IMG/VR virus record: IMGVR_UViG_3300048580_000994
Coordinates: 1-64,000 of that record
Reading direction: 5' to 3' (one strand)
From: a virus
DNA length: 64,000 nucleotides
Under the pieces are notes generated by a model. It was not told the origin of the DNA. It made no database searches and saw nothing but the letters and a program-made list of their open reading frames with translations. The translations under genes were made by a program, and so were the position numbers. Below are positions 1,240-51,184 of the stretch, in pieces. Every line of letters begins with the position of its first letter. Positions within the stretch are counted from its first letter, which is position 1.

Positions 1240-1256
1240 TTTATTGTTTCCTAATG

Positions 1257-1346
1257 TATAAATAGTTAATGGAGGGAGTAGTTGTACCTAATGACTACTT
1301 GGAAGAAATTTACAAGATTTCTTCCACCTTCCTGTATTTATTTATC
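1257..1346 (+). ncRNA. Divergent copy of nuclease-associated three-way-junction sRNA element
   Basis: TATAAATA 1257; GGAGGG/CCTTCC outer stem; GTAGTT/GACTAC hairpin containing CCTAATG, which repeats the RBS region 1250-1256; second hairpin GGAAGAAAT/ATTTCTTCC; TATTTATC 1339. Confidence 0.55.
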
Positions 1347-1457
1347 AATTTTTTCAAAAAAATGTATATTGATTTTTAAAAATCAATGATTTATACTAAA
1401 ATAGTTAATTTTTAAAACTATTTTATAAATAAACGTTTATTATAATGGAGTTATAGC

Positions 1458-3332
1458 ATGGTATCAAAGACAAAAAATTTGGAACAACAGTTTAAAAAAT
1501 TAGACGAGATATCACACGTCCTTCTCAGACCTGGGCGTTATATTGGTGCGGTCACACCACACACTGGAGATTATTATATTGTTGATGTAGAAAACCAAAA
1601 AATGGTAAAAGAAACCATTACATTTGTTCCTGCATTGATTAAAATTTTTGATGAAATCATTTCAAATTCTGTTGATTTTTCCAAAACACCAGATGGAAAA
1701 CATGTTACTACCATTAAAGTTAATATTGATAGGGATTCAGGTGAAATATCAATATTTGATGATGGAGGAATTATAGTCCAAAAGCATAAGGAGCACGACC
1801 AATATATACCAGAACTTGTATTTGAGTTGCGGGCTGGTTCCAATTTCAACGACGACGAGGACACAGAACTTACCGGACAAAATGGTGAAGGTGCAGCATT
1901 GACAGCTATTTTTTCAACATCCTTCAACGTTAAAACCTGTGATGGAAAGAATTCATTTGAACAAACCCATTTGGAAAACTCCAGACGCAAAACCACCCCA
2001 AGAGTGAAACCCCATGACAAAAAATTCACCAAAATCACTTTCACCCCTGATTATGAAAAATTTGGTTTGACGAAACTTGACGATGGGAACTATGCTAAAT
2101 TGGTCAAGAGAGTTTATGATGTTGCTGGCTGTAACACCTCATTGAAAGTTTTCTTTAACGACAAACAAATCAAAATCAAATCCTTTGAAGATTATGTTAA
2201 ATTTTATAAGGACGATTATGTTTATGCAGACAACGCTAAATGGAAAATCGCAGTAGCCCATTCAGATGACGGATTTAACCATATTTCATTTGTTAATGGT
2301 ACTGAAACTACAATTGGTGGTAACCATGTTAAATATATCACAGACCAAATTACAGTTAAACTTCGTGAATATTTCAAGAAAAAACACAAAGTTGATGTAA
2401 AACCAAATGAGATTTTGAACCATGTCCAGCTATTCATCGATGCATCAATCGTCAAGCCAAGATATTCATCCCAAACCAAAGAAGATTTGATAACAGAAAT
2501 CAAACAATTCGGGACAACGTTTGACGTTACAGATAGGTTCATCAATAAAATCATCCAAAGCACTATCATCCATTCAGTTCTTGATTGGGTTGAAACAAAA
2601 GCAGAAGCAGTAAACAGGGCTGAGTTGCGAAAATTGAATAAAGACGTTGATAAGACTAATCTTCGGAAAATCATCAAATTCTCAGATGCTGCGACGAAAA
2701 ACCGCAACGACGCCATTCTATTCATAACAGAGGGACAATCAGCCCAAGGAGCTATCAATTCAGCCAAAGACCCAAATACAATGGGTTCATATCCACTTAG
2801 GGGCAAACCAGTTAATGTTATGGCAACTGACAACAAGAAATTACTTGAAAACGAAGAGTTCAAAGAGTTATTATCAATCATTGGATTAAAGATCGGTGAA
2901 CCAGCCAAGAATATTCGTTTTGGAAAAATCGCATTCTGCGCTGACGCTGATCATGATGGGAGTGCAATTAATGGATTGTTGATAAATCTTTTTTATTCAT
3001 TTTGGCCAGATTTGTTTACAGAAGGACGAATGTACGTTTTCCGTACCCCAATCGTCAAAGTTACACAAAAGGGTATAGTAACTGCGTTCTATACAAACGA
3101 AGAATGGCAAGAATGGCAAGCAAGTAATACCAATTCAAAATTCACCTTTAAATATTATAAAGGTCTTGGTAGTTCCCTTGCACCTGAATTCAAAGAATAT
3201 TTTAAAAATATGGACAAACATTTGGTTCAAATAGTAAAAGACGATAAAGATAATACTACCTTGCGATTGATTTATAGTAAGGATGATGGTATGTCAAATA
3301 AACGCAAAGAATGGTTGGAGTTAATAGAATGA
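1458..3332 (+). CDS. DNA topoisomerase II large (ATPase+TOPRIM) subunit, T4 gp39/60-like
   Basis: HVLLRPGRYIG, EIISNSVD, GQNGEGA, TEGQSA, PLRGK, DADHDG, YYKGLG motifs. Confidence 0.95.
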   Translation: MVSKTKNLEQQFKKLDEISHVLLRPGRYIGAVTPHTGDYYIVDVENQKMVKETITFVPALIKIFDEIISNSVDFSKTPDGKHVTTIKVNIDRDSGEISIFDDGGIIVQKHKEHDQYIPELVFELRAGSNFNDDEDTELTGQNGEGAALTAIFSTSFNVKTCDGKNSFEQTHLENSRRKTTPRVKPHDKKFTKITFTPDYEKFGLTKLDDGNYAKLVKRVYDVAGCNTSLKVFFNDKQIKIKSFEDYVKFYKDDYVYADNAKWKIAVAHSDDGFNHISFVNGTETTIGGNHVKYITDQITVKLREYFKKKHKVDVKPNEILNHVQLFIDASIVKPRYSSQTKEDLITEIKQFGTTFDVTDRFINKIIQSTIIHSVLDWVETKAEAVNRAELRKLNKDVDKTNLRKIIKFSDAATKNRNDAILFITEGQSAQGAINSAKDPNTMGSYPLRGKPVNVMATDNKKLLENEEFKELLSIIGLKIGEPAKNIRFGKIAFCADADHDGSAINGLLINLFYSFWPDLFTEGRMYVFRTPIVKVTQKGIVTAFYTNEEWQEWQASNTNSKFTFKYYKGLGSSLAPEFKEYFKNMDKHLVQIVKDDKDNTTLRLIYSKDDGMSNKRKEWLELIE

Positions 3333-4663
3333 CAATAATGAAAAAAACAATTACAGAATATTTAAATGACGAAGTGAGGGCATTCTCCACTTATGCCAAT
3401 GTTAGAACCATTCCATCTGTTGTTGACAGTTTCAAGCCGGGACAGCGTAAAGCCATCTATACCCTTCTTCGTCGTGGTGAATCTTCAGGTGAAGTCAAAG
3501 TGTCTTCATTGTCTGGTGAAGTTATTACCCATGCTGCGTATCACCATGGCAACGTATCATTGGAAAATACCATTATCACATTATCACAAAATTTTTCTGG
3601 GTCGAATAACTATAATCTTTTAGAACCAATTGGGCAATTTGGTACACGATTGAATAAAGACGCCTCTGCTGCTCGTTATATTTTCACCAAACTTTCAAAA
3701 TATTTTAGAATGTTTTATAAGAAAGAAGATGAATTGTTGCTTGTTCAAAAAGACGAAGATGGAGATTTGATTGAGCCAGAAAACTACTTCCCTATAGTTC
3801 CAACTGTTCTTTTAAATGGAGTATCAGGTGTGGGGACAGGTTTTGCCACGATGATTATGTCCTATAAAGCATCTGACGTTATTGATAACTGTGTGGCTGT
3901 ATTGAATGGTAAAAAACAAAAGTCATTAATACCATGGGTTAGAGATTTCACTGGTACTATCAATCGTGAACCATCTGGTAGTATTGTGATGACTGGTGTA
4001 CTAACAGTTACTGGTGTTTATAGTTTAAAAATAACAGAAATCCCAACAGATTATGATTTGGAGAGTTATAAAGGGGTTTTGAATAAATTAGAAGATGCAG
4101 GTGTTATTAGGGAATATGATGATTTGTCATCTGGTAATAGATTTGAATTTGTTGTAAAAATTAATAGGGAAGTATCACAGCTTCCAATGGATAAATTACT
4201 TGAAAAATTTAAACTTATTAGTAAATTTAGTGAAAACTACACTTTGTTTAATGAAAATAATAAAATCAAAGTATTCCAAAATCCAAATGAAATTGTTGAA
4301 TATTTTGTAAAATTGCGACTTATTAAATATGCAGAACGTATTGCAGCATTAATCAAATATAAAGAAGAAGACTTGGTTTGGAAAAATGAAAAAATAAAAT
4401 TCATTAAATATTGGTTAAAAAATTCCAATTCACTAACGAAATTGACTAAATCAGAATTGTATGATAATTTAAAAAATGCGGGGTTTATTTCGATTGATGA
4501 CTTGTTGGGTAATAAGATTTATAATTTGACTAAAGAAGAAGTTGATAAATTGGAAAATCAAATAATTGAAGTCACAAATGAGATTGTTGAATTGAAAAAT
4601 ACAAAACCAAATGAATTATATATAAAAGAATTACAAATACTAAAAAAAGAACTAAAAGAATAA
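3311..4663 (+). CDS. DNA topoisomerase II medium (breakage-reunion) subunit, T4 gp52-like; true start likely 3329 or 3338
   Basis: IPSVVDSFKPGQRK, YHHG, SAARY catalytic Tyr, GVGTGF motifs. Confidence 0.95.
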   Translation: MVGVNRMTIMKKTITEYLNDEVRAFSTYANVRTIPSVVDSFKPGQRKAIYTLLRRGESSGEVKVSSLSGEVITHAAYHHGNVSLENTIITLSQNFSGSNNYNLLEPIGQFGTRLNKDASAARYIFTKLSKYFRMFYKKEDELLLVQKDEDGDLIEPENYFPIVPTVLLNGVSGVGTGFATMIMSYKASDVIDNCVAVLNGKKQKSLIPWVRDFTGTINREPSGSIVMTGVLTVTGVYSLKITEIPTDYDLESYKGVLNKLEDAGVIREYDDLSSGNRFEFVVKINREVSQLPMDKLLEKFKLISKFSENYTLFNENNKIKVFQNPNEIVEYFVKLRLIKYAERIAALIKYKEEDLVWKNEKIKFIKYWLKNSNSLTKLTKSELYDNLKNAGFISIDDLLGNKIYNLTKEEVDKLENQIIEVTNEIVELKNTKPNELYIKELQILKKELKE

Positions 4664-16797: not shown

Positions 16798-16889
16798 GGA
16801 CTCTAGGGAACTCTTGGTTTGTTCCAACGGGCTTTTAACCCGTCTTGCTTAACGCAATTGGCCAGTTCGATTCTAGGCAGAGTCTACCA
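16798..16889 (+). tRNA. tRNA-Lys(TTT) with long variable arm, encoded CCA
   Basis: ACGGG-CTTTTAA-CCCGT; TTGC-TTAAC-GCAA arm. Confidence 0.7.
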
Positions 16890-17751
16890 CTTTATTAAAA
16901 TACTTATCTTGTGCTTCTTTTACTGTTCTTGTTTTTATACCAAGATATTGTAAAAGAAAAAATGGTCCAGCAGGGTTTGGGTTTTTTAATAGTTCACATA
17001 ATTGTGGGGTACTATATTGGTTGTATAATGATTGGGCATAATTTTTACAAGTATTCCAATCATTGATAAATTCAGGTGTACCCAAATTATCTAATGATAA
17101 ATTAAAATATTTGTTTAGTCCTTTTAATATTTGGGTTGAACGATTGATGCCACAAAGGCAATTTGGTTTTTTTGTTCCACAAAATTTACACAAGGTTTTA
17201 TCTATTATTGGTGGTTTGTGTGATTTAGTGTTTTTATTTTCCCAAGATAACAGAGGGCGATATTTTACTGCTTTTGGTCCATACCACCCTTGTCCAATAT
17301 ATTCTTCCAATAATAATTTGGATATTTTGGTTCGTGTGTTGGTTAAAGGTTGTATAACCCAACAGGTTCCAAATTGCGAGTTTTTATCACCAGATTGTGT
17401 ATTGCTCATTGTTGTGCTCATATTTTTTCTGGCATAATCATATAAGCGTGAATTAAAATATCGTTGTATATTACACCAAGAAGAACTTTTCATCATATTA
17501 AATGCCATAATCATACTATACCAACTGTGTGATTTTTCAGGTAGCATTTTACAAAGAAGATAGTGACATATAAAATGTTCTCTAGCAGTTAAAAAAACTA
17601 AATTATCGTTGGTATCATCACCATCCAACGACCTTGGGATGATGTGGTGTTTTTCATAATATTGGGTTTTAGATTTAACCCTTGGTTGTGATTTAGCGTT
17701 TTGGATAATTCCATAATACCAATTATAGTATTTATTTTTTATAAAAATCAT
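16873..17751 (-). CDS. HNH homing endonuclease (MIFIKNKYY family)
   Basis: EKHHIIPRSLDG..NLVFLTAREHFICH; start re-set to ATG 17751 with GGAG RBS; paralogues at 31524 and 50275. Confidence 0.85.
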   Translation of the reverse strand: MIFIKNKYYNWYYGIIQNAKSQPRVKSKTQYYEKHHIIPRSLDGDDTNDNLVFLTAREHFICHYLLCKMLPEKSHSWYSMIMAFNMMKSSSWCNIQRYFNSRLYDYARKNMSTTMSNTQSGDKNSQFGTCWVIQPLTNTRTKISKLLLEEYIGQGWYGPKAVKYRPLLSWENKNTKSHKPPIIDKTLCKFCGTKKPNCLCGINRSTQILKGLNKYFNLSLDNLGTPEFINDWNTCKNYAQSLYNQYSTPQLCELLKNPNPAGPFFLLQYLGIKTRTVKEAQDKYFNKVVDSA

Positions 17752-17774
17752 TTGTATTCTCTCCGAATAAAGTG

Positions 17775-17858
17775 TATAAATAAAAGGAGTGGGACAAGCC
17801 CTTCTCCGATGGGTTTCTAATACCGGCAAAGTATTGGATACCACTAATCTTATTTATC
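17775..17858 (+). ncRNA. Nuclease-associated three-way-junction sRNA element
   Basis: TATAAATA..AGTGG-GACAA-GCCC-loop(TCTCCGA)-GGGT-hairpin-TA-CCACT..TATTTATC. Confidence 0.75.
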
Positions 17859-17918: not shown

Positions 17919-17991
17919 AGTCCCTTAGCTCAGAGGCAGAGCGGCAGGTTCTTACCCTGCGTCAGCGAGATTTCAAAATTCTCAGGGACTA
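17919..17991 (+). tRNA. tRNA-Lys(CTT)
   Basis: GCAGG-TTCTTAC-CCTGC. Confidence 0.75.
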
Positions 17992-20046: not shown

Positions 20047-20766
20047 CTATTTGTTTATATAAATTGGCATTGATGAATTATACCAATTATTATTATATTC
20101 AGAGTATTTGGTATTCCATTCGTCAATTTCTAATAATAATTGTTCTAAAGTAACTGATGAATTTCCACACTTGGAACAATTGTCCTTTTTTAATAAATAT
20201 TCACAGTTGGCAGGATGTGACAATATCATTGGATTTATATTGTTTTTATAACCATTAACGACTGAATAACGATGGTCTTTATCATAGTTGTTTCCTTCAA
20301 TAATATTATTAAAACCTAATAAACAATGCTTAATATTGTCGTGTATTTTTTTAAATCTGGATAATGTTCTGTAGTTTTTAAATGGCTCGACATCTGCAAT
20401 AGTTAGTCCAAATTTTTTGAGTAATGTGTTTCTTTGTTGTTCCCTTGATTTTTCTGAACGATTTTTATTAGAGTTATCTCCAGAACAAGTTTGTGAACAA
20501 AAAGAATTTCGTCTTTGTTCATAAGGAATATTGTTGCCACATACCAAACATTTTTTGACAAATGAAGCTGTTGATATTGCCAATCGTTCTTTATTGGTTA
20601 AAAATCCTGCTTCTTTAATTGCGTTACTCCAACTACCAAATGTTCTTTCAAAGTGTCCATAATGAATGCTTGGTGAAAAAGTAAAATCGTTTCTTGATGG
20701 TATTTTATTATGTTGATTATAAAAATTTTTTAGTTCTGAAATTAAAAAGTCTTTAGTATATTTCAT
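20047..20766 (-). CDS. Zn-ribbon + HNH-like endonuclease (DH..S..G..HPANC family)
   Basis: N-terminal FGSWSNAIKEAG repeat, CxxC..FCSxxC, DHRYS..HPANC..N motif. Confidence 0.75.
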   Translation of the reverse strand: MKYTKDFLISELKNFYNQHNKIPSRNDFTFSPSIHYGHFERTFGSWSNAIKEAGFLTNKERLAISTASFVKKCLVCGNNIPYEQRRNSFCSQTCSGDNSNKNRSEKSREQQRNTLLKKFGLTIADVEPFKNYRTLSRFKKIHDNIKHCLLGFNNIIEGNNYDKDHRYSVVNGYKNNINPMILSHPANCEYLLKKDNCSKCGNSSVTLEQLLLEIDEWNTKYSEYNNNWYNSSMPIYINK

Positions 20767-20790
20767 TTGACATAATCTCCGGTTTCGGGT

Positions 20791-20881
20791 TATAAATAAA
20801 GGAGTGGGACAAGCCCTCCTCCGGTTGGGTTTCTATTGCCGCCACAGCAATGGATACCACTAATTCTTTATATTATTTATC
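20791..20881 (+). ncRNA. Nuclease-associated three-way-junction sRNA element
   Basis: Loop CTCCGGTT equals RBS region 20777-20784. Confidence 0.75.
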
Positions 20882-21860: not shown

Positions 21861-22682
21861 TTACTTGATATATCTGGGTAATGTGTGGTTGCCAAATTCC
21901 CATAATACTATTCGAAGAAATAGTTCATTCAATGTTATAGTTGATGATATTCTTCTGTTAAAATTTTCTTTATATGGAACCATTTCTGCGTTTGCAGGAT
22001 GTTTTATTAATTCAAATGATATATTATTTTTATATCCTTCTTGTATTTGGTATAAATGGTCCCAAGTAACTCCGGTGGGGTTTGGGTTCATTGCTGAATG
22101 TGGTCTATACCACCCATAGTTTTTGATCATTTCAAAATCAAATAATTCACTATGTTTTTTGGAAGATAATGAAAACCTGCAACTTTTTCTGTAAAATGTT
22201 TTATTTTCATATCTACATTTTGTGCAATAACAAGAACTTCTTGATGCTGGACTGATAAATATAATATTACATTTTTCACATTGTTTGTATTTAATATTTG
22301 TGGTTGGGTATTCTTTTGGTGCTTTATATGTTGGTGATTTTGTTCTTGGATTTTGTTGGAAATATATTTTTAATTTTTTAGAAACAGTTAATCCAATTTG
22401 TTGTTTAGAAACATCTGATAGTGTCCAGCCATTTTCAATTCGTTTTTTATTAGTATAAGTAGCAGAACAAGAATGATTGCAGAAATCTTTTCTTTTATTA
22501 TCATAATCAATAATTATACCGCAGCACAAACATTTTTTAGGGTTTTGGTTGTATAGTTTGATGTTTTCGTTTTTAGTATGGTTGCCCAAACATTGTTTTG
22601 AGCAATAAGTCATTGATCTTTTATCTTTGATTATAAATTCTTTTTTACATTCTTGGCATATAGCAGTTTTTTTAATTTTCAT
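21861..22682 (-). CDS. Zn-ribbon + HNH-like endonuclease (HPAN family)
   Basis: CxxC/CSxxC repeats; WDHLY..GY..HPANA..EN. Confidence 0.75.
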   Translation of the reverse strand: MKIKKTAICQECKKEFIIKDKRSMTYCSKQCLGNHTKNENIKLYNQNPKKCLCCGIIIDYDNKRKDFCNHSCSATYTNKKRIENGWTLSDVSKQQIGLTVSKKLKIYFQQNPRTKSPTYKAPKEYPTTNIKYKQCEKCNIIFISPASRSSCYCTKCRYENKTFYRKSCRFSLSSKKHSELFDFEMIKNYGWYRPHSAMNPNPTGVTWDHLYQIQEGYKNNISFELIKHPANAEMVPYKENFNRRISSTITLNELFLRIVLWEFGNHTLPRYIK

Positions 22683-22706
22683 TTGACATAATCTCCGGTT
22701 TCGGGT

Positions 22707-22797
22707 TATAAATAAAGGAGTGGGACAAGCCCTCCTCCGGTTGGGTTTCCATTATCCGCTAAGTAATGGATACCACTAATTCTTTATATTATTTATC
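22707..22797 (+). ncRNA. Nuclease-associated three-way-junction sRNA element
   Basis: Same P1/P2 as 20791 copy, different P3 hairpin. Confidence 0.75.
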
Positions 22798-22829: not shown

Positions 22830-22904
22830 GCTCGGTAGATCGCTGGGGCGACGATGATCCTTACAAGATTGTTGTGGTGGGTCCAATCCCCACACCGAGT
22901 ACCA
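22830..22904 (+). tRNA. tRNA-Val(TAC)
   Basis: TGATC-CTTACAA-GATTG; ACCA end. Confidence 0.75.
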
Positions 22905-27548: not shown

Positions 27549-28622
27549 TTATGGTATAAAATCACATTCCCATATGGTAATTAAATTAAATCCATCAGAT
27601 AATAATTTATTTTCTCTTATTAATGTTGATGTATATAGTTCACCGAATGTTTTCTTATTATTTGAATTAATATCTGATGGATTAAATTTAGATGGATTGC
27701 CGTGCCAATAATCACCATAAAATTCATATATAGTATTTGTTTCTGGGTTAAAGCCATCAACTTTTATTATTGATTTATCTGATAAAACTAATTCGATCTG
27801 TCTCATATTTTTTGGGATACCAATTGTGTCAAGCCATAAATTTTCTTTTTTACTTTGCAAACAATTTGGGCAATTCGAACCTGTCAAATGTAAGTCAGCT
27901 CTTTGTTGAAAAACACCATGTTTTTTACAAATTATATTGATTTTTGTTCTGGTGTTTATATATTCAACTAATGTGTAGTCATATTTATCACCATGAATTT
28001 TCTTGGCTTGTTCGATATATTCTGTTGTAGTTTTTCTGTTATTACCATAACATTTACTGCAACCAATACCAAGTAAATGTGTCCCAGGTGGTTGTTCAAA
28101 GTCGCCATGAATTGGGCAAGTTATTATTATTTTTGTGGCTGCATTTATATATATAGTTTTATCATAATTATAAAAATTGTTGTGAATTGTTGATGCCTCT
28201 TTAATAAATTGTTCTTTTGTTTTTGTTTTATTATCTGATGAGCACTTTGGGCATCCATGTCCACTAATATGATTGTCTGGTGTTTGTTCAAAATCACCAT
28301 GAGTTGGGCATGTTATTACAATTTTATTATCTGTTGATGTATAATTTATTTTATCATAATTATAAAAATTGTTGTGAATTGATGATGCTTCTTTAATAAA
28401 TTGTTCTTTTGTTTTTCTACAACGTTGTGAGTTTTTTGCTCCTTTACATTTAGGACAACCATAACCTCTAGAATGGTTATCTGGTGTTTGTAAAAATATA
28501 CCATGAGTTTTACAAATAATTTTTACTTTTTCTCTGGCTTTTTCATAAATGACAGATGTATAATCATATTTATTATTATGAATTTTTGATGATTTTTCTA
28601 TAAATTTTAATAATTTTGACAT
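27549..28622 (-). CDS. Homing-endonuclease-like protein with Zn repeats and Vsr-like nuclease domain
   Basis: Paralogue of 151..1239; IYEFYGDYWHG. Confidence 0.8.
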   Translation of the reverse strand: MSKLLKFIEKSSKIHNNKYDYTSVIYEKAREKVKIICKTHGIFLQTPDNHSRGYGCPKCKGAKNSQRCRKTKEQFIKEASSIHNNFYNYDKINYTSTDNKIVITCPTHGDFEQTPDNHISGHGCPKCSSDNKTKTKEQFIKEASTIHNNFYNYDKTIYINAATKIIITCPIHGDFEQPPGTHLLGIGCSKCYGNNRKTTTEYIEQAKKIHGDKYDYTLVEYINTRTKINIICKKHGVFQQRADLHLTGSNCPNCLQSKKENLWLDTIGIPKNMRQIELVLSDKSIIKVDGFNPETNTIYEFYGDYWHGNPSKFNPSDINSNNKKTFGELYTSTLIRENKLLSDGFNLITIWECDFIP

Positions 28623-28795
28623 AATTTGTATCCTTTTTGTATTAATTATATATTATATAATAGTATTTATCTTTTTGTCAATTTTAATGGTGGTTATGGT
28701 GCTAAAAACGAACTTTTTTAATCTTTTTGAATTTTAGTCCTTGACATCTAAGAAAAATCCAGCTATACTATGTGGACAATTTAGGAGTAACGACG

Positions 28796-29113: not shown

Positions 29114-30283
29114 TTATTTTTTGTGTCTTGTCATTCCTCGCCAGAAACCTTCTGGTATTGTATCGTTATGATTTAATCTTGTATTAATTATTCCATTGGT
29201 TATATAAATTTTTCCAGACATAGATGCACTTATTTTTTCTTTGTGTTCTTGGGTTTTTGATAAATGTTTGGATGTTATTACTATTGGTTGGATATTATTT
29301 TTATCCCAAGTTTGAATTTTTTTTATTAATTCTTCGATGGACATTCCGATTCCAGTACCTTTAGTGATATTATCTAAATTGGATAATAATTGACAATTCG
29401 CTGGGTGTGATATAATTTTTGGGTCAATATTATTTCTCCAGCCATATTCGACTGATATTATATGGTCTCTACAAACACCTTGTTTGTTATTAGTTGAATT
29501 GTAGAACCCATATTTTAATAATAAATCATAGCCTTGTATATTTGGGTATAAGAAAACATCGAATAAAAATTTACATTCTTTTTTATAGATTTTTTTCTTA
29601 TCTGTCATTTTTGTACCAGATTGTATTCTGTAATTTTGGTTTGCTATGGTTAATGTTCTTAAATTAATTCCTATTATTTTTAAAAACATTCCAAAATCAC
29701 TATATTGGATTTTTAGATAGTTTTTAATTTCTTTTGCAGACATTTTTTCATTTGTGTATAGTCTATCTAATTCTTTTATTGAATTATTAATGTTTATTTG
29801 TGTTTGTTGATTGCCTAATTGAAAATTAAATATATTAGCTAATTTTTTTGCAATCGGGAGTTTTGTTGGGTTATCCCACCCTGTGGCTGGTTTTAATTTA
29901 GGATGGTATATATTGCCTGTGATTGGGGAATATTTAATTTTGGTATGTTGGTATTTGTTTTTTATTTTAATTGGGTTTTGTTTATTAATTTTTAATTTTT
30001 CAGATATTTGTTTTTTTGCGGTTTCAGGCATTGCCCACCCGGTTTCTTTTCGTTTTTTATTATTATATTTAGCAGAACAAGAACTACTACAAAAATTGTT
30101 TGATTTATTATCATATTTTATCAAAATTCCACAATATAGACATTTTTTTGGGTTTTGGTTATATGTTTTGATGTTTTCATTTTTGGTATGATCGCCATAA
30201 CATTTTGGTGAACAAAAAGTTGATGTTGTTTTTGCTGGTATAAATTCTTTTTTACATTCTGGGCATATAGCAGTTTTTTTCAT
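29114..30283 (-). CDS. Zn-ribbon + HNH-like endonuclease (HPANC family) with NUMOD-like tail
   Basis: RDHIIS..HPANC..N; EHKEKIS..ITNG..GFWRG; start re-set to 30283/30289. Confidence 0.75.
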   Translation of the reverse strand: MKKTAICPECKKEFIPAKTTSTFCSPKCYGDHTKNENIKTYNQNPKKCLYCGILIKYDNKSNNFCSSSCSAKYNNKKRKETGWAMPETAKKQISEKLKINKQNPIKIKNKYQHTKIKYSPITGNIYHPKLKPATGWDNPTKLPIAKKLANIFNFQLGNQQTQININNSIKELDRLYTNEKMSAKEIKNYLKIQYSDFGMFLKIIGINLRTLTIANQNYRIQSGTKMTDKKKIYKKECKFLFDVFLYPNIQGYDLLLKYGFYNSTNNKQGVCRDHIISVEYGWRNNIDPKIISHPANCQLLSNLDNITKGTGIGMSIEELIKKIQTWDKNNIQPIVITSKHLSKTQEHKEKISASMSGKIYITNGIINTRLNHNDTIPEGFWRGMTRHKK

Positions 30284-30306
30284 TTGCATTTTCTCCGAAT
30301 AAAGTA

Positions 30307-30397
30307 TATAAATAAAAGGAGTGGGACAAGCCCTTCTCCGATGGGTTTCCAATACTTCCGACGGTGTTGGATACCACTACTATTTATATTATTTATC
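30307..30397 (+). ncRNA. Nuclease-associated three-way-junction sRNA element
   Basis: Loop TTCTCCGA equals RBS region 30291-30298. Confidence 0.75.
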
Positions 30398-30431: not shown

Positions 30432-30507
30432 GGGTGTGTGAAGGGAATTTGGTATACCTTGTGTTCTTAGAAATCACAGTTTGCAGGTTCGATGCCTGTC
30501 GCACCCA
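30432..30507 (+). tRNA. tRNA with TAG anticodon but short variable loop
   Basis: GTGTT-CTTAGAA-ATCAC; 5-nt variable loop. Confidence 0.7.
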
Positions 30508-30801: not shown

Positions 30802-30887
30802 GCGGGTAGCAGACATCTGGGGGTGTCACCGGTCTTCCAAACCGGCTACTGTAAAAGGTATTTTGGATTCGATTTCCACTACCCGCT
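30802..30887 (+). tRNA. tRNA-Gly(TCC) with long variable arm
   Basis: CCGGT-CTTCCAA-ACCGG; TACTGTAAAAGGTA arm. Confidence 0.7.
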
Positions 30888-31458: not shown

Positions 31459-31526
31459 TAAGCCGAAGGTAAATGGTTATCGCAAACATCAACTTTGAAA
31501 AAACATCATTCACCAACCCTTGCTTA
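31459..31526 (+). ncRNA. Permutation-clamp element with short insert
   Basis: AGC-CGAA-GGTAAATGG-TTATC..TCATTCACC-AACCCTT-GCT. Confidence 0.6.
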
Positions 31527-32564
31527 TTTTATTATTTTTTGTTTTGATAGAATTATATATCCTTTTATAGCTAATTTATCATAGCTTATCTTTGTAAAAA
31601 TATTATGATTTTTTAGGAATTCTCTCATATTATTTGTTGTTATAATTGATTTGTCAGGTAATTGAATTTTATACAGGAATTGTGGGTTAGGTTTTCTGGT
31701 TGTTGGTGATATATAATTTGGATTTTGTTGTTTAAGAAATTCTCTGGATTCTTTGGGTGTTCTTATTGATATATTTAATAATCTTAATAATTTATGCAAA
31801 CCACCAGTGTTTTTATGATTAACTAACCTACTAAGTTCTATAGAACTATATTTATTATATAAATTTTTGGCATAGTTTTTACATAATTCCCAATCAGTAA
31901 TAAAGTTTGGTGTGCCTAAATTTGCCAGATTCAAATTAAAATATTTGTTTAATCCTGGTAATGCTTGTTTACTCATATCTATTTTGCATATTTGGCATAG
32001 TGTTTTTGATTTATGTCTTGTGCCGCAAAATGGACAGATCGTTAATTTTAATTTTTTTTCTTCTAATGATAATTTTGGTTGATAACCGTTTTTTGGCCCA
32101 TACCATCCTTGTCCTATATATTCTTCTATTAATGTTTTTGGGACTTGTTTTTGTAAGTTTATTATCCAAGAATGTGTGACCCAGCACATTCCATATCTTG
32201 GGTTTTTGCTACCTGTAAATTGTTGCATTGTTTTGCTCATGTTTTTTCTGGCATATTCATATAAATGGGAATTAAAATATCTATGATTATTTACAGTTGT
32301 TTTCATCATATTAAAAGCTCTGACCATACTATACCAATTCTCTGTATTAATTGGTAACATTTTACAAAGAAGATAGTGGCATATAAAATGTTCTCTGGCA
32401 GTTAATAGAACTAAATTTTCTTTGGTGTTATCCCCTTTCAATGATTTTGGTAATATATGGTGTTTTTCATAATATTGGGTTTTGGATTTAACCCTTGGTT
32501 GTGATTTGGCATTAGTAATAATATTATAATACCAGTTGTAGTATTTATTTTTTATAAAAATCAT
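31524..32564 (-). CDS. HNH homing endonuclease (MIFIKNKYY family)
   Basis: EKHHILPKSLKG..NLVLLTAREHFICH. Confidence 0.85.
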   Translation of the reverse strand: MIFIKNKYYNWYYNIITNAKSQPRVKSKTQYYEKHHILPKSLKGDNTKENLVLLTAREHFICHYLLCKMLPINTENWYSMVRAFNMMKTTVNNHRYFNSHLYEYARKNMSKTMQQFTGSKNPRYGMCWVTHSWIINLQKQVPKTLIEEYIGQGWYGPKNGYQPKLSLEEKKLKLTICPFCGTRHKSKTLCQICKIDMSKQALPGLNKYFNLNLANLGTPNFITDWELCKNYAKNLYNKYSSIELSRLVNHKNTGGLHKLLRLLNISIRTPKESREFLKQQNPNYISPTTRKPNPQFLYKIQLPDKSIITTNNMREFLKNHNIFTKISYDKLAIKGYIILSKQKIIK

Positions 32565-32588
32565 TTTGACTTATCTCCAGTCTAAAGT

Positions 32589-32674
32589 TATAAATAGATG
32601 AGCGGGACAAGCCCTACTCCAGTTGGGTTTCAATTATCGTCAAATAATTGATACCGCTCCTAATCTTATTTATC
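32589..32674 (+). ncRNA. Nuclease-associated three-way-junction sRNA element
   Basis: AGCGG/CCGCT compensatory stem; loop CTCCAGT equals RBS region 32575-32581. Confidence 0.75.
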
Positions 32675-35054: not shown

Positions 35055-35921
35055 TTAGAGTCCTTTTTCTTTTTTAACATACTCCCAATTTAGATTTTCA
35101 TATTTGTCTATGATAAGAAAATTCTTATTGTATATTTTTAACCATTTATCGATCCTAACCATTTGTTCTGGATTTTTCCAAGCCTTTGGGTCAAGATATA
35201 AATTAAAATCTGGTAAGAAAAAATCTGGTGTGTATGAACTGCCGCCACCAATCCAAAAATGATATGCTCGTTTCCATTTTATTCCTGCTTTATCAAGTTC
35301 ATTTGCCATTTTCCATTCCCAAGTAGAATCTAACTGGCATTCCCTTCCAAAAGAATCTATATATTGAATTTTTTTGGACCAACCACTGGCTGATCTCCAT
35401 TCTGGGTGTAGTGCAATCCCGCTTGGGTTTGCCAAACAGCGTTGTCTGAGTTTTTCTTTTGTTTCGTCTGAGTGTGTGGTTTGTAATCCAGATGTAAATT
35501 GATTACCAAAAGATTCGTGGGTTGAACCTAATTTATATAAATGAGTATCTTGGTGTTGTATACCATTTTCAGTATGAGATAGCCAATAATGTGATAATAA
35601 CGATGTTCTTGAATTAAAATTTTGTTGGCAATTCGGACATACCCATAAATTATTAATTAGACAATCATTTGTTATTATAGATGCAACATTAGTTTTTAAT
35701 TTGTTTGGTCCAGTAAAATAAGTCCCGTCACAGGAGTCATTGTGTTTTTTAAAATTGCTTTTAGATATTTCTCTGTTGCATTTTTCGCAGCATTTTGTTG
35801 CTTTTAATGCAGTTGATAAATTTTCGCTTCTGCATTTATCTGAACAATAATTTTTTCTTCTATTGGTTGTTGTGAATGCTGTTTTGCAGTGCTGGCATAT
35901 TTTAGTTTTTTCTTTGCTCAT
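35055..35921 (-). CDS. Zn-finger + PD-(D/E)XK endonuclease
   Basis: CxxC motifs, C2H2-like finger, LDSTWE..YTPDF..LDPK. Confidence 0.75.
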   Translation of the reverse strand: MSKEKTKICQHCKTAFTTTNRRKNYCSDKCRSENLSTALKATKCCEKCNREISKSNFKKHNDSCDGTYFTGPNKLKTNVASIITNDCLINNLWVCPNCQQNFNSRTSLLSHYWLSHTENGIQHQDTHLYKLGSTHESFGNQFTSGLQTTHSDETKEKLRQRCLANPSGIALHPEWRSASGWSKKIQYIDSFGRECQLDSTWEWKMANELDKAGIKWKRAYHFWIGGGSSYTPDFFLPDFNLYLDPKAWKNPEQMVRIDKWLKIYNKNFLIIDKYENLNWEYVKKEKGL

Positions 35922-35948
35922 TTTATTGACCTCTCTAAAATTAAATGT

Positions 35949-36040
35949 TATAAATAAGAATTAGCGGGACAAGCCCATTCACTCTTGGTGGGTTTTCCGA
36001 ACCTCAGAAATTTGGAATACCGCTACTATTATTATTTATC
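35949..36040 (+). ncRNA. Nuclease-associated three-way-junction sRNA element (weak loop match)
   Basis: TAGCGG-GACAA-GCCC..GGGT..TA-CCGCTA. Confidence 0.7.
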
Positions 36041-37519: not shown

Positions 37520-38092
37520 TCAATTAATGTTTGAGTACTCATTTTTGACTTGTTCAAATATTGTATTTGGCAATTCTACTTGTAATAAATTTTTTAAATG
37601 TTTGATACATTCTTTTACTACTGCTACTGTTTCTACCAAATGTCCATTATTGCCTCTAACATCTGTTGGTGTGTATTCTCTCCAATATTTAATTAAAGTT
37701 TCTCCGTGTGTTGTTTTCAATTTGTTATTTACTGCGAAACCGAGTATGGATGCTTTATTGTTGGAATTATAAATTTTCCCTGTTACGTAGAATTTAAATT
37801 TTGTTTTTCTTTGACGGTTTGGGTTATTGCGTAATACATCATTATTATCAAAGGTATCATATGAAGCATCATTTCTTACCATTTCCACTTGAAAGTTTGG
37901 TTTTATTAATTTATTAAGTTTGTTTGCGACTATTTTTAATTTATTGATTGTGTATATATATTCTTTACCTTCTTCTTCGAATGGTTCATCGAACAATGTG
38001 TTTTTGGCTGCAATGACTGATTTTTTGATTGCATTGAAATCTTCGTTTATTTTGGTAGCTTCCATTAATTTTCTCATATCTGTGGCTGACAT
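37520..38092 (-). CDS. Late protein with DMRKLME N-terminus
   Basis: AAGGAG RBS; N-terminus shared with 63363 ORF. Confidence 0.65.
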   Translation of the reverse strand: MSATDMRKLMEATKINEDFNAIKKSVIAAKNTLFDEPFEEEGKEYIYTINKLKIVANKLNKLIKPNFQVEMVRNDASYDTFDNNDVLRNNPNRQRKTKFKFYVTGKIYNSNNKASILGFAVNNKLKTTHGETLIKYWREYTPTDVRGNNGHLVETVAVVKECIKHLKNLLQVELPNTIFEQVKNEYSNIN

Positions 38093-38196
38093 AATAATTT
38101 CTCCTTAAAATTTGTTATATAAATATATTTATTTTTTCCATAAAATCGCTTGACTAAAAATTAAAATCTGTTATACTGATTTAATCAAATGATGGA

Positions 38197-47215: not shown

Positions 47216-47818
47216 CTATTTTTTATATTTTTCTTCCCACAATCTTACTCTTTCAAATAACTCGTCTATCGTTATGGATGAATTATGGTTCTTGCGTGAA
47301 TTATCAGATTGTGAAATTAATTTACAATTCGCTGGGTGACTTATAAAAAACGGGTCTATTTTATTTTTAAAACCATCAGCCATGCTATACATGTGATCCC
47401 TTGATATTCCCCCTTTATTTGTCAGAGAATTAAACATCCCATGTTGTATTAATAATTTAAAATCAAATTCTTCTGGATAATCTTTGATGTTAAATAAAAA
47501 CTTTGATTGTTCTTTGTATTGTTTTTTATCGTTCATAAAATCAATTGGTTTAACACGTAATTCATTGTTGAATTTTGCAGCACAAGAACTTGAGCAGAAC
47601 TTTCTTTGGTGCCATACTGTTAAATAATTATCACAACAAATACATTTTCGTAGCTTTGATTGGTATTTTATTAATAAATCTGCAGCTATAATTCGTTTGG
47701 TTAAAATACAAGAACATTTTGGTCTTGTGATTGTACCATTTGATAATCCATGCATTCTCATATGCCCAGATAGAGCATTTTGGTTTTTAAATTCTTTTTG
47801 GCATATATCACATTTCAT
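47216..47818 (-). CDS. C2H2 finger + HNH-like endonuclease (HPANC family)
   Basis: CDIC..HMRMH; SRDHMYS..HPANC..N. Confidence 0.75.
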   Translation of the reverse strand: MKCDICQKEFKNQNALSGHMRMHGLSNGTITRPKCSCILTKRIIAADLLIKYQSKLRKCICCDNYLTVWHQRKFCSSSCAAKFNNELRVKPIDFMNDKKQYKEQSKFLFNIKDYPEEFDFKLLIQHGMFNSLTNKGGISRDHMYSMADGFKNKIDPFFISHPANCKLISQSDNSRKNHNSSITIDELFERVRLWEEKYKK

Positions 47819-47842
47819 CTTGCGTTTTCTCCGGTATAAGTG

Positions 47843-47930
47843 TATAAATAATGAAAGTGGGACACCCCATCCTCCGGTGGACTTCAGTTGTCAACAATAC
47901 TCCTGATCACCACTATTAGTATTATTTATC
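47843..47930 (+). ncRNA. Nuclease-associated three-way-junction sRNA element
   Basis: AGTGG/CCACT; loop CTCCGGT equals RBS region 47829-47835. Confidence 0.7.
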
Positions 47931-48079: not shown

Positions 48080-48129
48080 CTGAAAATGTTTGACAAAGTA
48101 TGGAGAAAAAGGTATATTAATAAAATCAA

Positions 48130-48388: not shown

Positions 48389-48637
48389 ATGGTAAGTGCA
48401 ATATCTGGTGTTAGTCATTCTGCTCAACGGGCATATGCTGTTCAAATGCAGAGTATTTTATCACAAAACCGTCAAGAAGAGCGTCAAGCTGTAGCGGCGA
48501 TTTCTGGTGTTTCGTCTGTATTATCTGGACAAGTTCAAGCTGAACAAAAGCCAAAGGAAGAAAAGAAAACTGAACAACCAACCACACAATATGCTTCGGC
48601 TGAAGGTCGGGGTAAGAGTGTTAATATAGTGGTGTAA
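48389..48637 (+). CDS. Small low-complexity protein with GxGxxVNIxV C-terminus (YjfB-like)
   Basis: GGAGG RBS; late promoter. Confidence 0.55.
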   Translation: MVSAISGVSHSAQRAYAVQMQSILSQNRQEERQAVAAISGVSSVLSGQVQAEQKPKEEKKTEQPTTQYASAEGRGKSVNIVV

Positions 48638-48640
48638 GAA

Positions 48641-48880
48641 ATGGCAACAGAGAATGATTTTGTAAATTATCCGAGAATGGTTAGTGGATATTGGGTTCAC
48701 AATGCTGCTGCAGATGCTGTAGCATCGAGGGGGCTTGATCCAAAGACTACACCACCAACACAAGATTATAGTTTACCTGTGACTGCATCATTTGCCAATA
48801 CAGGATTAAACAATCGTTTATCTGGTGGGTTGAATAGTTTTATCAATGAACTATCGACTTCATATTCTAAAAAAGAGTAA
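48641..48880 (+). CDS. Hypothetical protein
   Basis: ORF in operon. Confidence 0.55.
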   Translation: MATENDFVNYPRMVSGYWVHNAAADAVASRGLDPKTTPPTQDYSLPVTASFANTGLNNRLSGGLNSFINELSTSYSKKE

Positions 48881-49028
48881 TTTATTCTTTTTTGATAAAT
48901 AGTCATACTATGGATGAATTTGACAAAAGATTAAGACAGAAGATTAAAGAATATATAAGAAAAAACAAGGAGCGTTTGAAGAAGCTTTTCAAGCGCAAGA
49001 AACCTGTGTCTGAATCTGGTGAAAAGAA

Positions 49029-49616
49029 ATGAGATTGTATGAAATAACACGAATAACAAAAAACTCCCAAGCCACCAGAATATTAAAAAGATCTGGGTGG
49101 GAAATTGCTGGTGAAGGCGCGAACGCTACTGTGTATTTTCGTGAGGACAAACCATATGTTTTAAAAATATTTACTCCTTATGATAGTGCGTTTGTTGCTT
49201 ATATAAAATTTTGTCAAAAAAATTCAAACCCGCATTTCCCTAAATTTTATAAGGATATTGTTAAAATAACTAAAAATTTGTGTGCTATTAGAATGGAGAG
49301 GTTGTATCCATTGGATGAAACAGAAGAAATTATAACAGGGTTAGAAATATTGGCTTCGTATATTTCAAAATATTCTATTGATCCATCGTTTCTTTCGCAT
49401 TCACCAGAAAAATTAGAAAATTTTTTGAAAGAAGTGGTTGAAAAACGAAATGATGTTCTTAATTATTTTGATGAATCTGTGGTGGCAGCTGCAGAATTGG
49501 TACCTGATATTGCTAAAAATAGAGGACATTTAGATATGCATCCACGTAATTTTATGCAACGATTGGATGGTACATTAGTTTTTTCTGACCCTATTACTAC
49601 TTTTTTTGGGAGATAG
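49029..49616 (+). CDS. Protein-kinase-like protein with MRLYE N-terminus
   Basis: GEGANATVY, VLK, MERL, DMHPRNFM, SDP. Confidence 0.8.
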   Translation: MRLYEITRITKNSQATRILKRSGWEIAGEGANATVYFREDKPYVLKIFTPYDSAFVAYIKFCQKNSNPHFPKFYKDIVKITKNLCAIRMERLYPLDETEEIITGLEILASYISKYSIDPSFLSHSPEKLENFLKEVVEKRNDVLNYFDESVVAAAELVPDIAKNRGHLDMHPRNFMQRLDGTLVFSDPITTFFGR

Positions 49617-49618
49617 AA

Positions 49619-50044
49619 ATGAGATTGTATGAACTATCATTAGTTTCCAAAAAATGGTTAAATTCACCCACTGAAGGATTTTTGGAACCAACTGTGGAAA
49701 ACATTTCGAAGGCGAAAGAGTTTGTATTTCGTAAATGGAAGGAGCGTGCTATTGAGCGAATGGAACGTGAACCATTAGATTTATCCACTGCTTGTAAATT
49801 CAGTTCATTATTTGTGAAGATGGTATTTGGCGGGACGATAAAGGGGACATGGGAGCATCAATACAATGACATTAATGGGGTAGTGGTTGACCTAAACAGC
49901 GATGCTGGGGACGTTTTAAGGCTACTGGAGCCACATAAGCATGATAGAAGGTTCATTGGTAACAGGGAGCATAATGAGTCGTTAGAGTCTTGCATTCCAA
50001 GGGTGAAACGTTGGGTAGAAGAATTTCATAATAGTGTCAGTTAA
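49619..50044 (+). CDS. Hypothetical protein with MRLYE N-terminus (Cys/His/Asp, possible transglutaminase-like)
   Basis: ACKFSSLF..HQYN..VDL. Confidence 0.6.
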   Translation: MRLYELSLVSKKWLNSPTEGFLEPTVENISKAKEFVFRKWKERAIERMEREPLDLSTACKFSSLFVKMVFGGTIKGTWEHQYNDINGVVVDLNSDAGDVLRLLEPHKHDRRFIGNREHNESLESCIPRVKRWVEEFHNSVS

Positions 50045-50122
50045 TGGTCTGATTGTGGTGATAAATACTTTTGTGGAATAATCTTTCCACAAAAATCCCA
50101 ACAATTTAGGAGTGATTTAATT

Positions 50123-50266
50123 ATGGTCACCACAATAGCCAAGAACTACATTAATGAAATATTAAAAGGCGAGCGTCAACTTCAAAAGATTGAGAAGACT
50201 GAGCAGAAGGTTGAGCAGGAAAAATTCCGCAAAGACGAGTCAAAAAATATTGATATTTTGGTGTGA
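50123..50266 (+). CDS. 47-aa protein ending NIDILV
   Basis: AGGAG RBS, late promoter; below ORF-track cutoff. Confidence 0.5.
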   Translation: MVTTIAKNYINEILKGERQLQKIEKTEQKVEQEKFRKDESKNIDILV

Positions 50267-50274
50267 TTTAAGTT

Positions 50275-51075
50275 TTATTTTTTGATAGCACTAAACCCCA
50301 ACCTATTTAATAGGGAGTATACAGTCCCTATGTTATCGTGTTTTATGATTTTAGTTATTTCTGAAACAGTATAATTATCACAAAGATTTTTTATATGTTG
50401 TTTCATGGAGTTCCAATCATTAATAAATTCTTTTGTTTTTAGGTTATCCAAACGTAATCCAAAATATTTATTACAACCTTTCATTATTTGGATTGAATAG
50501 TTTATATTACAAGAACAATCCTTTTTATGTTCTCCGCAGCAGTGACAAATTTTTATTTTCTCCCAAGATAATTTTGGGGTCCATGGTCCTTTTGGTCCTA
50601 TCCACCCTTGACCAATATATTCTTCGATTAAATGTTTTGGGATTTTGATTCGTAAATTATCTATCCAAGAATGAACCATCCAAGTGGTTCCGAATTGGGA
50701 ATTTAATTTTCCGCCTTGTGAGTTATTCATTGTGACAGGCATATTTTTTCTGGCATATTCATAAAGATGAGAATTAAAATATCTATTTTGGTTGTGAGAT
50801 ATAGATGAACTTTTCATCATATTAAGTGCTTTAACCATACTATACCATTCTATGGATTTTTCAGGTAACATTTTACAGAGTAGATAGTGACAAATAAAAT
50901 GTTCTCTGGCTGTTAATAAGATTAAATTATTTGTATTATCCAATCCACCTAATGACCTTGGTAGTATATGGTGTTTTTCATAATAAGTTTCTTTGGATTT
51001 AATTCTTTGTTGTGATTTGGCGTTTTGGATAATTCCATAATACCAGTTATAATATTTGTTTTTTATAAAAATCAT
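50275..51075 (-). CDS. HNH homing endonuclease (MIFIKNKYY family)
   Basis: EKHHILPRSLGG..NLILLTAREHFICH. Confidence 0.85.
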   Translation of the reverse strand: MIFIKNKYYNWYYGIIQNAKSQQRIKSKETYYEKHHILPRSLGGLDNTNNLILLTAREHFICHYLLCKMLPEKSIEWYSMVKALNMMKSSSISHNQNRYFNSHLYEYARKNMPVTMNNSQGGKLNSQFGTTWMVHSWIDNLRIKIPKHLIEEYIGQGWIGPKGPWTPKLSWEKIKICHCCGEHKKDCSCNINYSIQIMKGCNKYFGLRLDNLKTKEFINDWNSMKQHIKNLCDNYTVSEITKIIKHDNIGTVYSLLNRLGFSAIKK

Positions 51076-51099
51076 TTTGACTTATCTCCAGTCTAAAGT

Positions 51100-51184
51100 T
51101 ATAAATAGATGAGCGGGACAAGCCCTACTCCAGTTGGGTTTTTCAGATGGTCGAATCTCTGAAATACCGCTACTATTATTTATC
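51100..51184 (+). ncRNA. Nuclease-associated three-way-junction sRNA element
   Basis: Same as 32589 copy except P3; loop CTCCAGT. Confidence 0.75.

Follow-up and report, generated by a model that had tools for sequence, protein, structure and literature searches.

Putative antisense RNA cassettes matched to the ribosome-binding sites of homing endonuclease genes in an uncultured T4-like phage

The IMG/VR virus record IMGVR_UViG_3300048580_000994 has a length of 82,429 bp, a G+C content of 35% and an estimated completeness of 33%, and its first 64 kb (64,000 nucleotides, hereafter the window) were analysed in this study. The record belongs to a T4-like phage and encodes the large and medium subunits of topoisomerase II at 1458-4663. 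About 40 tRNA genes are located on the + strand between 15.9 and 51.6 kb, and nuclease genes of the minus strand are dispersed through this tRNA array. Directly upstream of minus-strand homing endonuclease genes lies a cassette consisting of TATAAATA, a three-way junction (P1, P2 and a variable P3) and TATTTATC, in which the P2 loop repeats the ribosome-binding site (RBS) of the adjacent gene.

Cassettes of the record and their match to the ribosome-binding site

The regular expression TATAAATA-N50-100-TATTTAT(C/A) was run over the full 82,429-bp record and matched at 10 places, nine in the window and one at 78724-78824. The cassettes in the window and their nuclease genes are called n1 to n9 and the tenth, outside the window, n10; L-numbers denote external contigs. 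All eight sequence-related copies that an initial annotation of the window had described were located at their positions. The same annotation had proposed that an element at 1257 shares the layout with an unrelated sequence, and this was borne out, the element repeating CCTAATG. The sequences of n1 and n10 are unrelated to the other eight, the layout is the same, and the minimum free energy (MFE) structure of both is a three-way junction. An exact count of GGGACAAGCCC gave seven occurrences, every one on the + strand, and the divergent copy at 47843 (n8) carries GGGACACCCC. In all cassettes of the record the minus-strand open reading frame (ORF) starts 15-27 nt left of the element, and a pair of face-to-face promoters encloses about 65 nt in each. 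The cassettes are as follows.

1240..1346, + strand, cassette n1: -35 TTGACA; RBS copy CCTAATG at 1250-1256; TATAAATA at 1257-1264; loop copy at 1287-1293; TATTTATC at 1339-1346.
17752..17858, + strand, cassette n2: RBS copy TCTCCGA at 17760-17766; TATAAATA at 17775-17782; P1/P2/P3 at 17786-17849; loop copy at 17803-17809; TATTTATC at 17851-17858; 78.5 bits with model R1.
20767..20881, + strand, cassette n3: -35 TTGACA at 20767-20772; RBS copy CTCCGGTT at 20777-20784; TATAAATA at 20791-20798; junction at 20801-20865; loop copy at 20819-20826; TATTTATC at 20874-20881; 82 bits with model R1.
22683..22797, + strand, cassette n4: RBS copy CTCCGGTT at 22693-22700; TATAAATA at 22707-22714; junction at 22717-22781; loop copy at 22735-22742; TATTTATC at 22790-22797; same as n3 except in P3.
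30284..30397, + strand, cassette n5: RBS copy TTCTCCGA at 30291-30298; TATAAATA at 30307-30314; junction at 30318-30382; loop copy at 30334-30341; TATTTATC at 30390-30397.
32565..32674, + strand, cassette n6: RBS copy CTCCAGT at 32575-32581; TATAAATA at 32589-32596; junction at 32599-32662; loop copy at 32617-32623; TATTTATC at 32667-32674; MFE structure a three-way junction.
35922..36040, + strand, cassette n7: TATAAATA at 35949-35956; junction at 35961-36028; TATTTATC at 36033-36040; 65.8 bits with model R1.
47819..47930, + strand, cassette n8: divergent P2; RBS copy CTCCGGT at 47829-47835; TATAAATA at 47843-47850; junction at 47854-47918; loop copy at 47872-47878; TATTTATC at 47923-47930; 51 bits with model R1.
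51076..51184, + strand, cassette n9: RBS copy CTCCAGT at 51086-51092; TATAAATA at 51100-51107; junction at 51110-51175; loop copy at 51128-51134; TATTTATC at 51177-51184; 76.2 bits with model R1.
78724-78824, + strand, cassette n10, beyond the window: CCTCCAT at 78715 (RBS) and 78760 (loop).

In nine of the 10 copies the P2 loop repeats 7-8 nt of the region between the start codon of its own gene and TATAAATA. Read on the gene strand, the matched stretch corresponds to the Shine-Dalgarno (SD) sequence with the 2-4 nt upstream of it. The repeated word is TCTCCGA in n2 (starting at 17760 and 17803), TTCTCCGA in n5 (30291 and 30334), CTCCGGTT in n3 (20777 and 20819) and n4 (22693 and 22735), CTCCAGT in n6 (32575 and 32617) and n9 (51086 and 51128), CTCCGGT in n8 (47829 and 47872), CCTAATG in n1 (1250 and 1287) and CCTCCAT in n10, and the two repeats are 42-43 bp apart in 7/10 copies. 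All loops share CTCC, and the test of the match therefore lies in the flanks. A permutation test was run with one representative of each of eight types (n1, n2, n3, n6, n7, n8, n10 and L135), scored by the summed longest common word. The observed sum of 54 was reached by one of 40,320 permutations, which was the identity, while derangements had a mean of 35.3 and a peak of 44. The claim that each loop repeats the RBS of its gene and changes with it is thus upheld by the repeats and by this test, and the sequence-unrelated n1 and n10 obey the same rule. In RNAduplex calculations the best cognate duplex was that of the loop with the SD in 9/10 copies.

Two further observations were made on the layout. 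Cassette n10 (record positions 78600-78830) heads a 58-aa ORF, followed in a different frame by a Zn-finger nuclease-like ORF, and its homologues in L181 and L183 head similar 59-aa ORFs with no PHROG match. At 38093-38135, upstream of the minus-strand gene 37520-38092 (190 aa, no PHROG match), TATAAATA directly abuts TATTTAT in a palindrome, which amounts to a face-to-face promoter pair with no junction in between.

Fold, promoters and nuclease families

The fold was evaluated by RNAalifold on nine copies, eight from the window and L135, which gave a P1 of 5 bp, a P2 of 6 bp and a P3 of 7 bp. In the consensus three-way junction, 93.2% of the 162 cells are paired against 80.0% in shuffled alignments, none of the 500 shuffles reached 93.2%, and slid controls showed 31-45%. 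Changes on both sides were found in 8 of the 18 pairs (all seven of P3 and one of the five of P1), and P2 is nearly invariant. As for the strand, 136 of the 162 cells are Watson-Crick, 15 are G.U pairs readable only on the + strand and three are G.U pairs readable only on the minus strand, two of which belong to the poorly aligned n8. The G.U pair of P2 is retained in 8/9 aligned copies. The MFE is lower on the + strand in eight of 10 elements (in n1, -27.0 against -17.7 kcal/mol), whereas for n8 and n9 the minus strand is slightly favoured. Because of the G.U balance of 15 to three, the retained G.U pair of P2 and the lower MFE, the conserved fold is assigned to a predicted + strand RNA, antisense to the nuclease genes.

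P3 was hypervariable between otherwise identical cassettes, and its changes preserve the pairing. When n3 (20827-20853) is compared with n4 (22743-22769), the flanks are the same in 66/66 and 28/28 nt and P3 in 16/21; n6 (32624-32650) and n9 (51135-51160) share 66/66 nt of the flank and 10/22 nt of P3. As P3 is the sole part that differs, it may carry the identity of the cassette, which is speculation. In n2 to n5, the CUCC of the loop can pair with a GGAG that immediately precedes P1 (17783-17812, 20799-20828, 22715-22744 and 30315-30344).

A scan of the window with Rfam reached the gathering score for the tRNA clan only (36 tRNA and one tRNA-Sec matches). No family matched the cassettes, the best score at an E cut-off of 10 being 15.9 bits against a gathering score of 76.1; C4, HEARO and all other families gave no match on them even at E = 10. 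A ribozyme or tRNA-like reading of the junction was dropped, as there is no Rfam support and no conserved catalytic core. A leader ORF starting from the SD of the loop was dropped as well, since the UUG is not retained in the GGGACAG subfamilies. The tRNA-Sec match lies at 30802-30886 inside the tRNA array, scores 49.1 bits against a gathering score of 47 and is not listed by ARAGORN.

A perfect TATAAATA is found by sequence match 4-9 nt ahead of P1 in 10/10 copies of the record. Over the whole record, TATAAATA occurs 24 times on the + strand and five times on the minus strand (10.2 expected per strand), and GATAAATA occurs 24 and 16 times on the two strands (5.5 expected), often 25-35 nt before start codons. 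Both motifs look like promoter elements of this phage, and GATAAATA may be a second promoter motif beside TATAAATA. In the cassettes, GATAAATA lies on the opposite side of the junction and points at the nuclease gene; in n3, n4 and n5 it overlaps a TTGAC(T/A)-18-AATAAT match. A word AAAGTCAAT recurs 7-13 nt before GATAAATA and just outside several cassettes.

The initial annotation had described convergent late-type promoters. Two promoters indeed appear to face each other across the junction, but "late-type" may be too narrow, because a -35-like TTGNNN lies 17-18 nt upstream of TATAAATA in all 10 cassettes of the record (TTGACA four times, TTGACT twice, and TTGACC, TTGTAT, TTGCAT and TTGCGT once each), and the promoters may therefore not be purely late-type. 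In relatives this spacing varies from 15 to 24 nt, and the T4-type late motif is the common denominator. The RBS of the nuclease gene lies inside the spacer of the + promoter and outside the + RNA, which makes the loop an additional, independently maintained copy. Downstream of the cassettes, tRNAs start 32-60 nt after n2 (tRNA-Lys at 17919), n4 (tRNA-Val at 22830) and n5 (a tRNA at 30434), and for the gene behind n6 no other promoter is evident.

The nuclease genes headed by the nine cassettes of the window are listed below.

151..1239, minus strand, n1: nuclease gene, 362 aa, DUF723/treble-clef repeats (PF05265, 4.1e-18; phrog_559, 2.9e-73; phrog_681).
16873..17751, minus strand, n2: HNH homing endonuclease, 292 aa (phrog_655, 2e-40).
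20047..20766, minus strand, n3: nuclease-like, 239 aa, HNH_repeat N-terminus (PF18780, 7.5e-11) and phrog_23051 C-terminal domain.
21861..22682, minus strand, n4: nuclease-like, 273 aa (phrog_23051, 6.6e-28).
29114..30283, minus strand, n5: nuclease-like, 389 aa (phrog_23051).
31524..32564, minus strand, n6: HNH homing endonuclease, 346 aa (phrog_655, 4.2e-37).
35055..35921, minus strand, n7: nuclease-like, 288 aa, Zn-finger N-terminus and resolvase/endonuclease-like C-terminus (phrog_9019, 5.7e-10; phrog_15137, 3e-5).
47216..47818, minus strand, n8: nuclease-like, 200 aa, C2H2 finger and phrog_23051 domain (1.9e-37).
50275..51075, minus strand, n9: HNH homing endonuclease, 266 aa (phrog_655, 2.9e-33).

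The view that the linked nucleases come from unrelated families holds at the PHROG level, where they form four groups. The phrog_655 proteins n2, n6 and n9 have about 59% mutual identity, and n3, n4, n5 and n8 have the phrog_23051 C-terminal domain in common, with the motif DH...N...HPANC. For this domain in n8, the structure rows of the Atlas gave GmrSD_C at a TM of 0.61-0.62 and HNH at a TM of 0.57, which serve as leads only; sequence searches of the PDB with n8 and n7 matched zinc fingers and nothing else. From the RBS to P2, n2 (HNH, phrog_655) and n5 (phrog_23051) are the same in 62/65 nt, and their proteins have no BLASTP match to each other. Near-identical cassettes thus stand on unrelated proteins, and therefore the loop follows the RBS and not the enzyme. 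The cassettes are portable between nuclease families and do not track protein type. Two nuclease genes that carry no cassette (within 27549-28680 and 53104-54510) are one of phrog_559/681, the family of n1, and one HNH-like, and each has retained a GATAAATA on its strand.

Cassettes in other uncultured phage contigs

Among GenBank phages, neither megablast with 12 kb of the record nor blastn with one cassette gave a match. In IMG/VR, the exact pattern TATAAATA-N-GGGACAAGCCC returned four chance matches, a looser 15-base pattern returned at least 118 matches that were mostly chance, and a 22-base pattern returned none. With the 22-base pattern, eight matches were obtained in metagenomes, one of them a true relative (L135). 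The exact family is rare, being found in this one metagenome contig with the new loop/RBS pair TCTCCTG. Protein-led searches with n6 and n5 yielded only distant nucleases without the element, model R1, run on three of the four records with gp39 relatives (43-55% identity), found no copy, and the L195-type cassette produced only a 33-nt chance match, to a Serratia phage.

The pattern TTGAC-N18/19-TATAAATA-N55-85-TATTTATC gave 24 loci, consisting of six cassettes and 18 chance matches, which were used as controls; a word of at least 7 was shared in 2/18 controls, both A/T-only or low-complexity. With TATAAATA-N-GGGACA-N-TATTTATC, 27 loci with 19 distinct sequences were obtained, and 16 of these sequences are cassettes. 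Many of the pattern-found cassettes are scored by model R1 at E <=1e-4, and with model R2 two further copies, which have different promoter variants, were found in a 359-kb record of 94% completeness. A promoter-free query found four copies, of which L135, L219 and L221 have TATAAATA and L207 has TATAAT. The junction nucleotides GGGACA and (G/T)A(T)TACC are conserved across the sequence subfamilies.

A search of phage contigs for covariation of loop and RBS had been proposed in the initial annotation, and its outcome agreed with the prediction. An adjacent ORF was present for 24 distinct external cassettes. In 17 of them loop and RBS have an identical word of 7-10 nt in common and in five more they do so with one G.U, so that about 22/24 follow the rule; L206 shares 6 nt and L182 none. 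The internal mismatches between the two copies are C in the RBS with T in the loop (L180, L190 and the related pair L194 and L217) and A in the RBS with G in the loop (L160). All four independent cases give a G.U pair in the duplex of the + loop with the minus-strand mRNA. Only two of the 12 possible ordered types of difference are compatible with G.U, and the chance of four out of four is about (1/6)^4 under random substitution, or (1/2)^4 if transitions alone are considered. This mismatch pattern points to RNA-RNA pairing.

The adjacent ORFs comprise 19 distinct ones, 17 of which were scanned, and 13 of these match PHROGs of homing endonucleases or endonucleases, including GIY-YIG, or phrog_23051. 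The scan covered L181 and L183 as one type and left out L188 and the second L195 copy (near-duplicates) and L216 (a 60-aa piece). For the ORFs of L185 and L135, the matches were confined to families that have no known function and occur together with these nucleases, and those adjacent to the cassettes of L200 and L181/L183 have no PHROG match. In L192 (8400-8560), a cassette of the GGGACAG subfamily directly follows the 3' end of a + strand tRNA with no nuclease gene, and it is perhaps a remnant kept for its promoter. A junction relative in L207 (2154-2217, the same element as in L220; 30.7 bits with R2) is located behind TTGACA-17-TATAAT; its P2 loop has no CTCC, and no adjacent nuclease start was seen.

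A possible antisense RNA and its alternatives

The anatomy of the cassette, the strand of its fold, the covariation of loop and RBS, the portability between nuclease families and the occurrence in other phages were established by these analyses. We suggest, with a probability of about 0.6, that the cassette encodes a cis-encoded antisense RNA that occludes the RBS of the nuclease gene, like RNA-OUT of IS10 or RNA II of par. Transcription from the + promoter TATAAATA, with its -35-like TTGNNN, would start at the foot of P1, and the RNA would fold into the three-way junction, presenting in the P2 loop the complement of the SD and 2-4 flanking nt of the endonuclease mRNA. This mRNA would be read leftwards from GATAAATA beyond the junction, and pairing of the loop with its RBS would hinder 30S binding and keep nuclease translation low. 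The same + promoter probably restarts transcription of the + strand into the tRNAs and genes interrupted by the nuclease insertion, and RNase P could then release the leader. The record shows a predicted opposite-strand promoter facing the 5' end of the mRNA, a conserved structure on the antisense strand and a loop complementary to the translation initiation region, three sequence features of an antisense RNA. The antisense proposal of the initial annotation is thus supported by the + strand fold, by TATAAATA before P1 in 10/10 copies, by loops that track the RBS in 9/10 copies and in about 22/24 elsewhere, and by mismatches of the G.U type. Its antitoxin wording stands as an analogy only, with the direct repeats of par.

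Several points weigh against this antisense proposal. The evidence is sequence-based, and we infer the production of the two RNAs, their pairing and the repression that would result from it. As the initial annotation had also noticed, the match of the copy at 35949 (n7) is weak, its P2 loop sharing only CTCT with the RBS; the P3 loop of this copy shares ACCTC. The RNAduplex energies are on average -15.9 kcal/mol for cognate and -13.6 kcal/mol for non-cognate pairs, so the specificity is modest, and as these energies separate the two weakly, the cassettes are not claimed to be orthogonal. In n2 to n5 the 5' GGAG, if transcribed, could pair with the loop, and the resulting two-hairpin fold is the MFE structure. 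The 5' untranslated region (UTR) of the minus-strand mRNA is fully complementary to the + RNA, and a loop-loop kiss there would compete with RBS pairing; such a kiss or a leader duplex may compete or cooperate with it. No clear terminator was seen after P1 in the cassettes. The minus-strand nuclease genes at 27549-28622 and 53104-54405 in the window have no cassette. Among the external contigs, a non-wobble C/A mismatch occurs one position from the end in L206, and in L196 and L200 the non-wobble differences are peripheral, two positions beyond an exact core of 9-10 nt.

A functional minus-strand 5' UTR would read the same element from the other side, with the P2 loop showing a second SD as a ribosome standby site, a decoy or a second operator for an RNA-binding repressor that also binds the true RBS. 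On the strand of the gene, the element does lie between the promoter-like GATAAATA and the RBS, its pairs are mostly Watson-Crick, so that the minus strand can fold similarly, and n8 and n9 fold slightly better there. However, the G.U cells favour the + strand (15 against three), and the conserved G.U of P2 turns into A.C on the minus strand. The flanks outside GGAG covary although pairing with 16S does not need them, and one repressor could not follow at least eight different flanks in one genome; the nuclease itself is not the reader, because n2 and n5 share the cassette and not the protein. The loop copy of L190 reads GAAG on the minus strand; as a poor SD, it argues against a standby site, and we regard the UTR explanation as rather unlikely. 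Still less probable is that the + junction is a mere 5' leader that stabilises the downstream tRNA and gene transcripts or marks them for processing, and that the likeness of loop and RBS is a functionless remnant of a duplication. The tRNAs that begin 32-60 nt after three cassettes, the gene behind n6 and the L192 cassette kept beside a tRNA without a nuclease gene fit this idea, as do invading endonuclease genes that can bring promoters for their neighbours, described in one review of the field (PMC2988022). It gives no account of a loop that changes with the RBS in unrelated sequence families and many phages, nor of the G.U-compatible mismatches. A leader role is compatible with the antisense role and is part of the best explanation.

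The two copies could also be half-sites of a DNA operator about 42 bp apart, with a bound protein repressing one or both promoters, in the manner of I-TevI, for which autorepression at an operator overlapping its own promoter is described (PMC2988022). The spacer of the + promoter contains one copy, the other follows about 25 bp after the start, and the spacing is 42-43 bp in 7/10 copies. But a covarying RNA hairpin always carries the second copy in its loop, the repeats vary from cassette to cassette within one genome without being tracked by the proteins, and a G.U mismatch bias is a property of RNA and not of DNA, which makes an operator very improbable. The poorest candidate is a guide or cofactor RNA bound by the nuclease and directing it to its own locus or target, as the initial annotation had alternatively proposed. 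Nothing speaks for it but the constant link with nuclease genes and the conservation of junction nucleotides (GGGACA and (G/T)A(T)TACC). Near-identical cassettes serve unrelated proteins (n2 and n5), the variable part matches the gene's own RBS and not a target, and P3 is a closed hairpin. HNH and GIY-YIG nucleases are protein-guided enzymes, which also counts against a guide. An RNA-guided nuclease of the IscB/TnpB omega-RNA type was rejected on the same grounds, the loop matching its own RBS and the cassette being shared by unrelated proteins.

Beyond the antisense proposal itself, a portable, re-programmable repressor with two addresses can be imagined, although we consider it doubtful. P3 would kiss its exact complement in the cognate mRNA leader and give identity, the P2 loop would close the RBS, and the invariant junction nucleotides (GGGACA and the (G/T)A(T)TACC side) would bind a dedicated phage or host protein, forming a small ribonucleoprotein that is carried from site to site and swapped between enzyme families.

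The preferred antisense arrangement resembles known systems in part. The c4 antisense RNA of phages P1 and P7 (C4 in Rfam) has loops complementary to an RBS region elsewhere in its locus; it is cut from the same transcript as its target, which gives inverted repeats in the DNA, unlike the direct repeats here. In IS10/Tn10, RNA-OUT and RNA-IN are likewise transcribed from face-to-face promoters at the 5' end of the enzyme gene of a mobile element, and RNA-OUT is a structured antisense RNA whose terminal loop starts the pairing with the mRNA, blocks 30S and acts in trans on all copies (PMC4513863). In IS10, however, the RBS lies inside the overlap and complementarity is automatic, whereas here it is placed in the antisense promoter's spacer and not in the overlap, with a separate copy in the loop; the structure is a three-way junction at a homing endonuclease gene of a phage and not one hairpin at a transposase gene. 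In par (fst) of pAD1, a type I toxin-antitoxin system, the direct repeats DRa and DRb are read from opposite strands, so that RNA I and RNA II have complementary segments, and their pairing sequesters the translation initiation region of the toxin (PMC7472228), which can be likened to the loop and RBS copies here. The par RNAs are convergent, share a terminator and use two repeats against a small membrane toxin, whereas here the 5' ends overlap and there is one repeat, in a hairpin loop.

For the homing endonucleases of T4-type phages, the review describes RBS-sequestering hairpins with embedded late promoters in I-TevI, I-TevII, I-TevIII, segB and Aeh1 mobE, and names cis hairpins, promoter choice and timing, and autorepression as the published controls (PMC2988022). 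Translational restraint of homing endonucleases and a late promoter near the RBS are common to these hairpins and the present cassettes. The T4-type hairpins act in cis on the gene's own strand with the RBS inside, whereas here the conserved fold is on the opposite strand and the RBS is not systematically paired, the SD window having a mean unpaired probability of 0.19-0.78 in the mRNA. This agreed with the initial annotation, which had noted a different geometry, and a cis hairpin over the RBS was rejected, since the RBS is outside the junction, the SD window is not systematically paired and the adjacent promoter points away from the gene. CfrI of cyanophage S-PM2 is also an antisense RNA beside a homing endonuclease gene of a T4-like phage; it is reported to link psbA and the endonuclease gene, and the seen portion of that article describes no RBS-matched loop or portable cassette (PMC12197685). 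No description of the cassette was found in a literature search of main texts. Taken together, we rate the cassette as an apparent variant of a known control principle that seems to be widespread in uncultured T4-like phages.

Among the mobile genes of T4-like phages, free-standing homing endonucleases are the most common. If the antisense proposal is true, it would add an undescribed structured RNA family, and the short rule from loop to RBS could find use in a compact programmable repressor of translation. Control of the endonucleases would gain a further, widespread layer from a portable antisense cassette whose loop is adapted to each RBS. Such a cassette would also account for how nuclease genes inserted in the orientation opposite to a tRNA or gene array remain harmless while still giving their neighbours a promoter.

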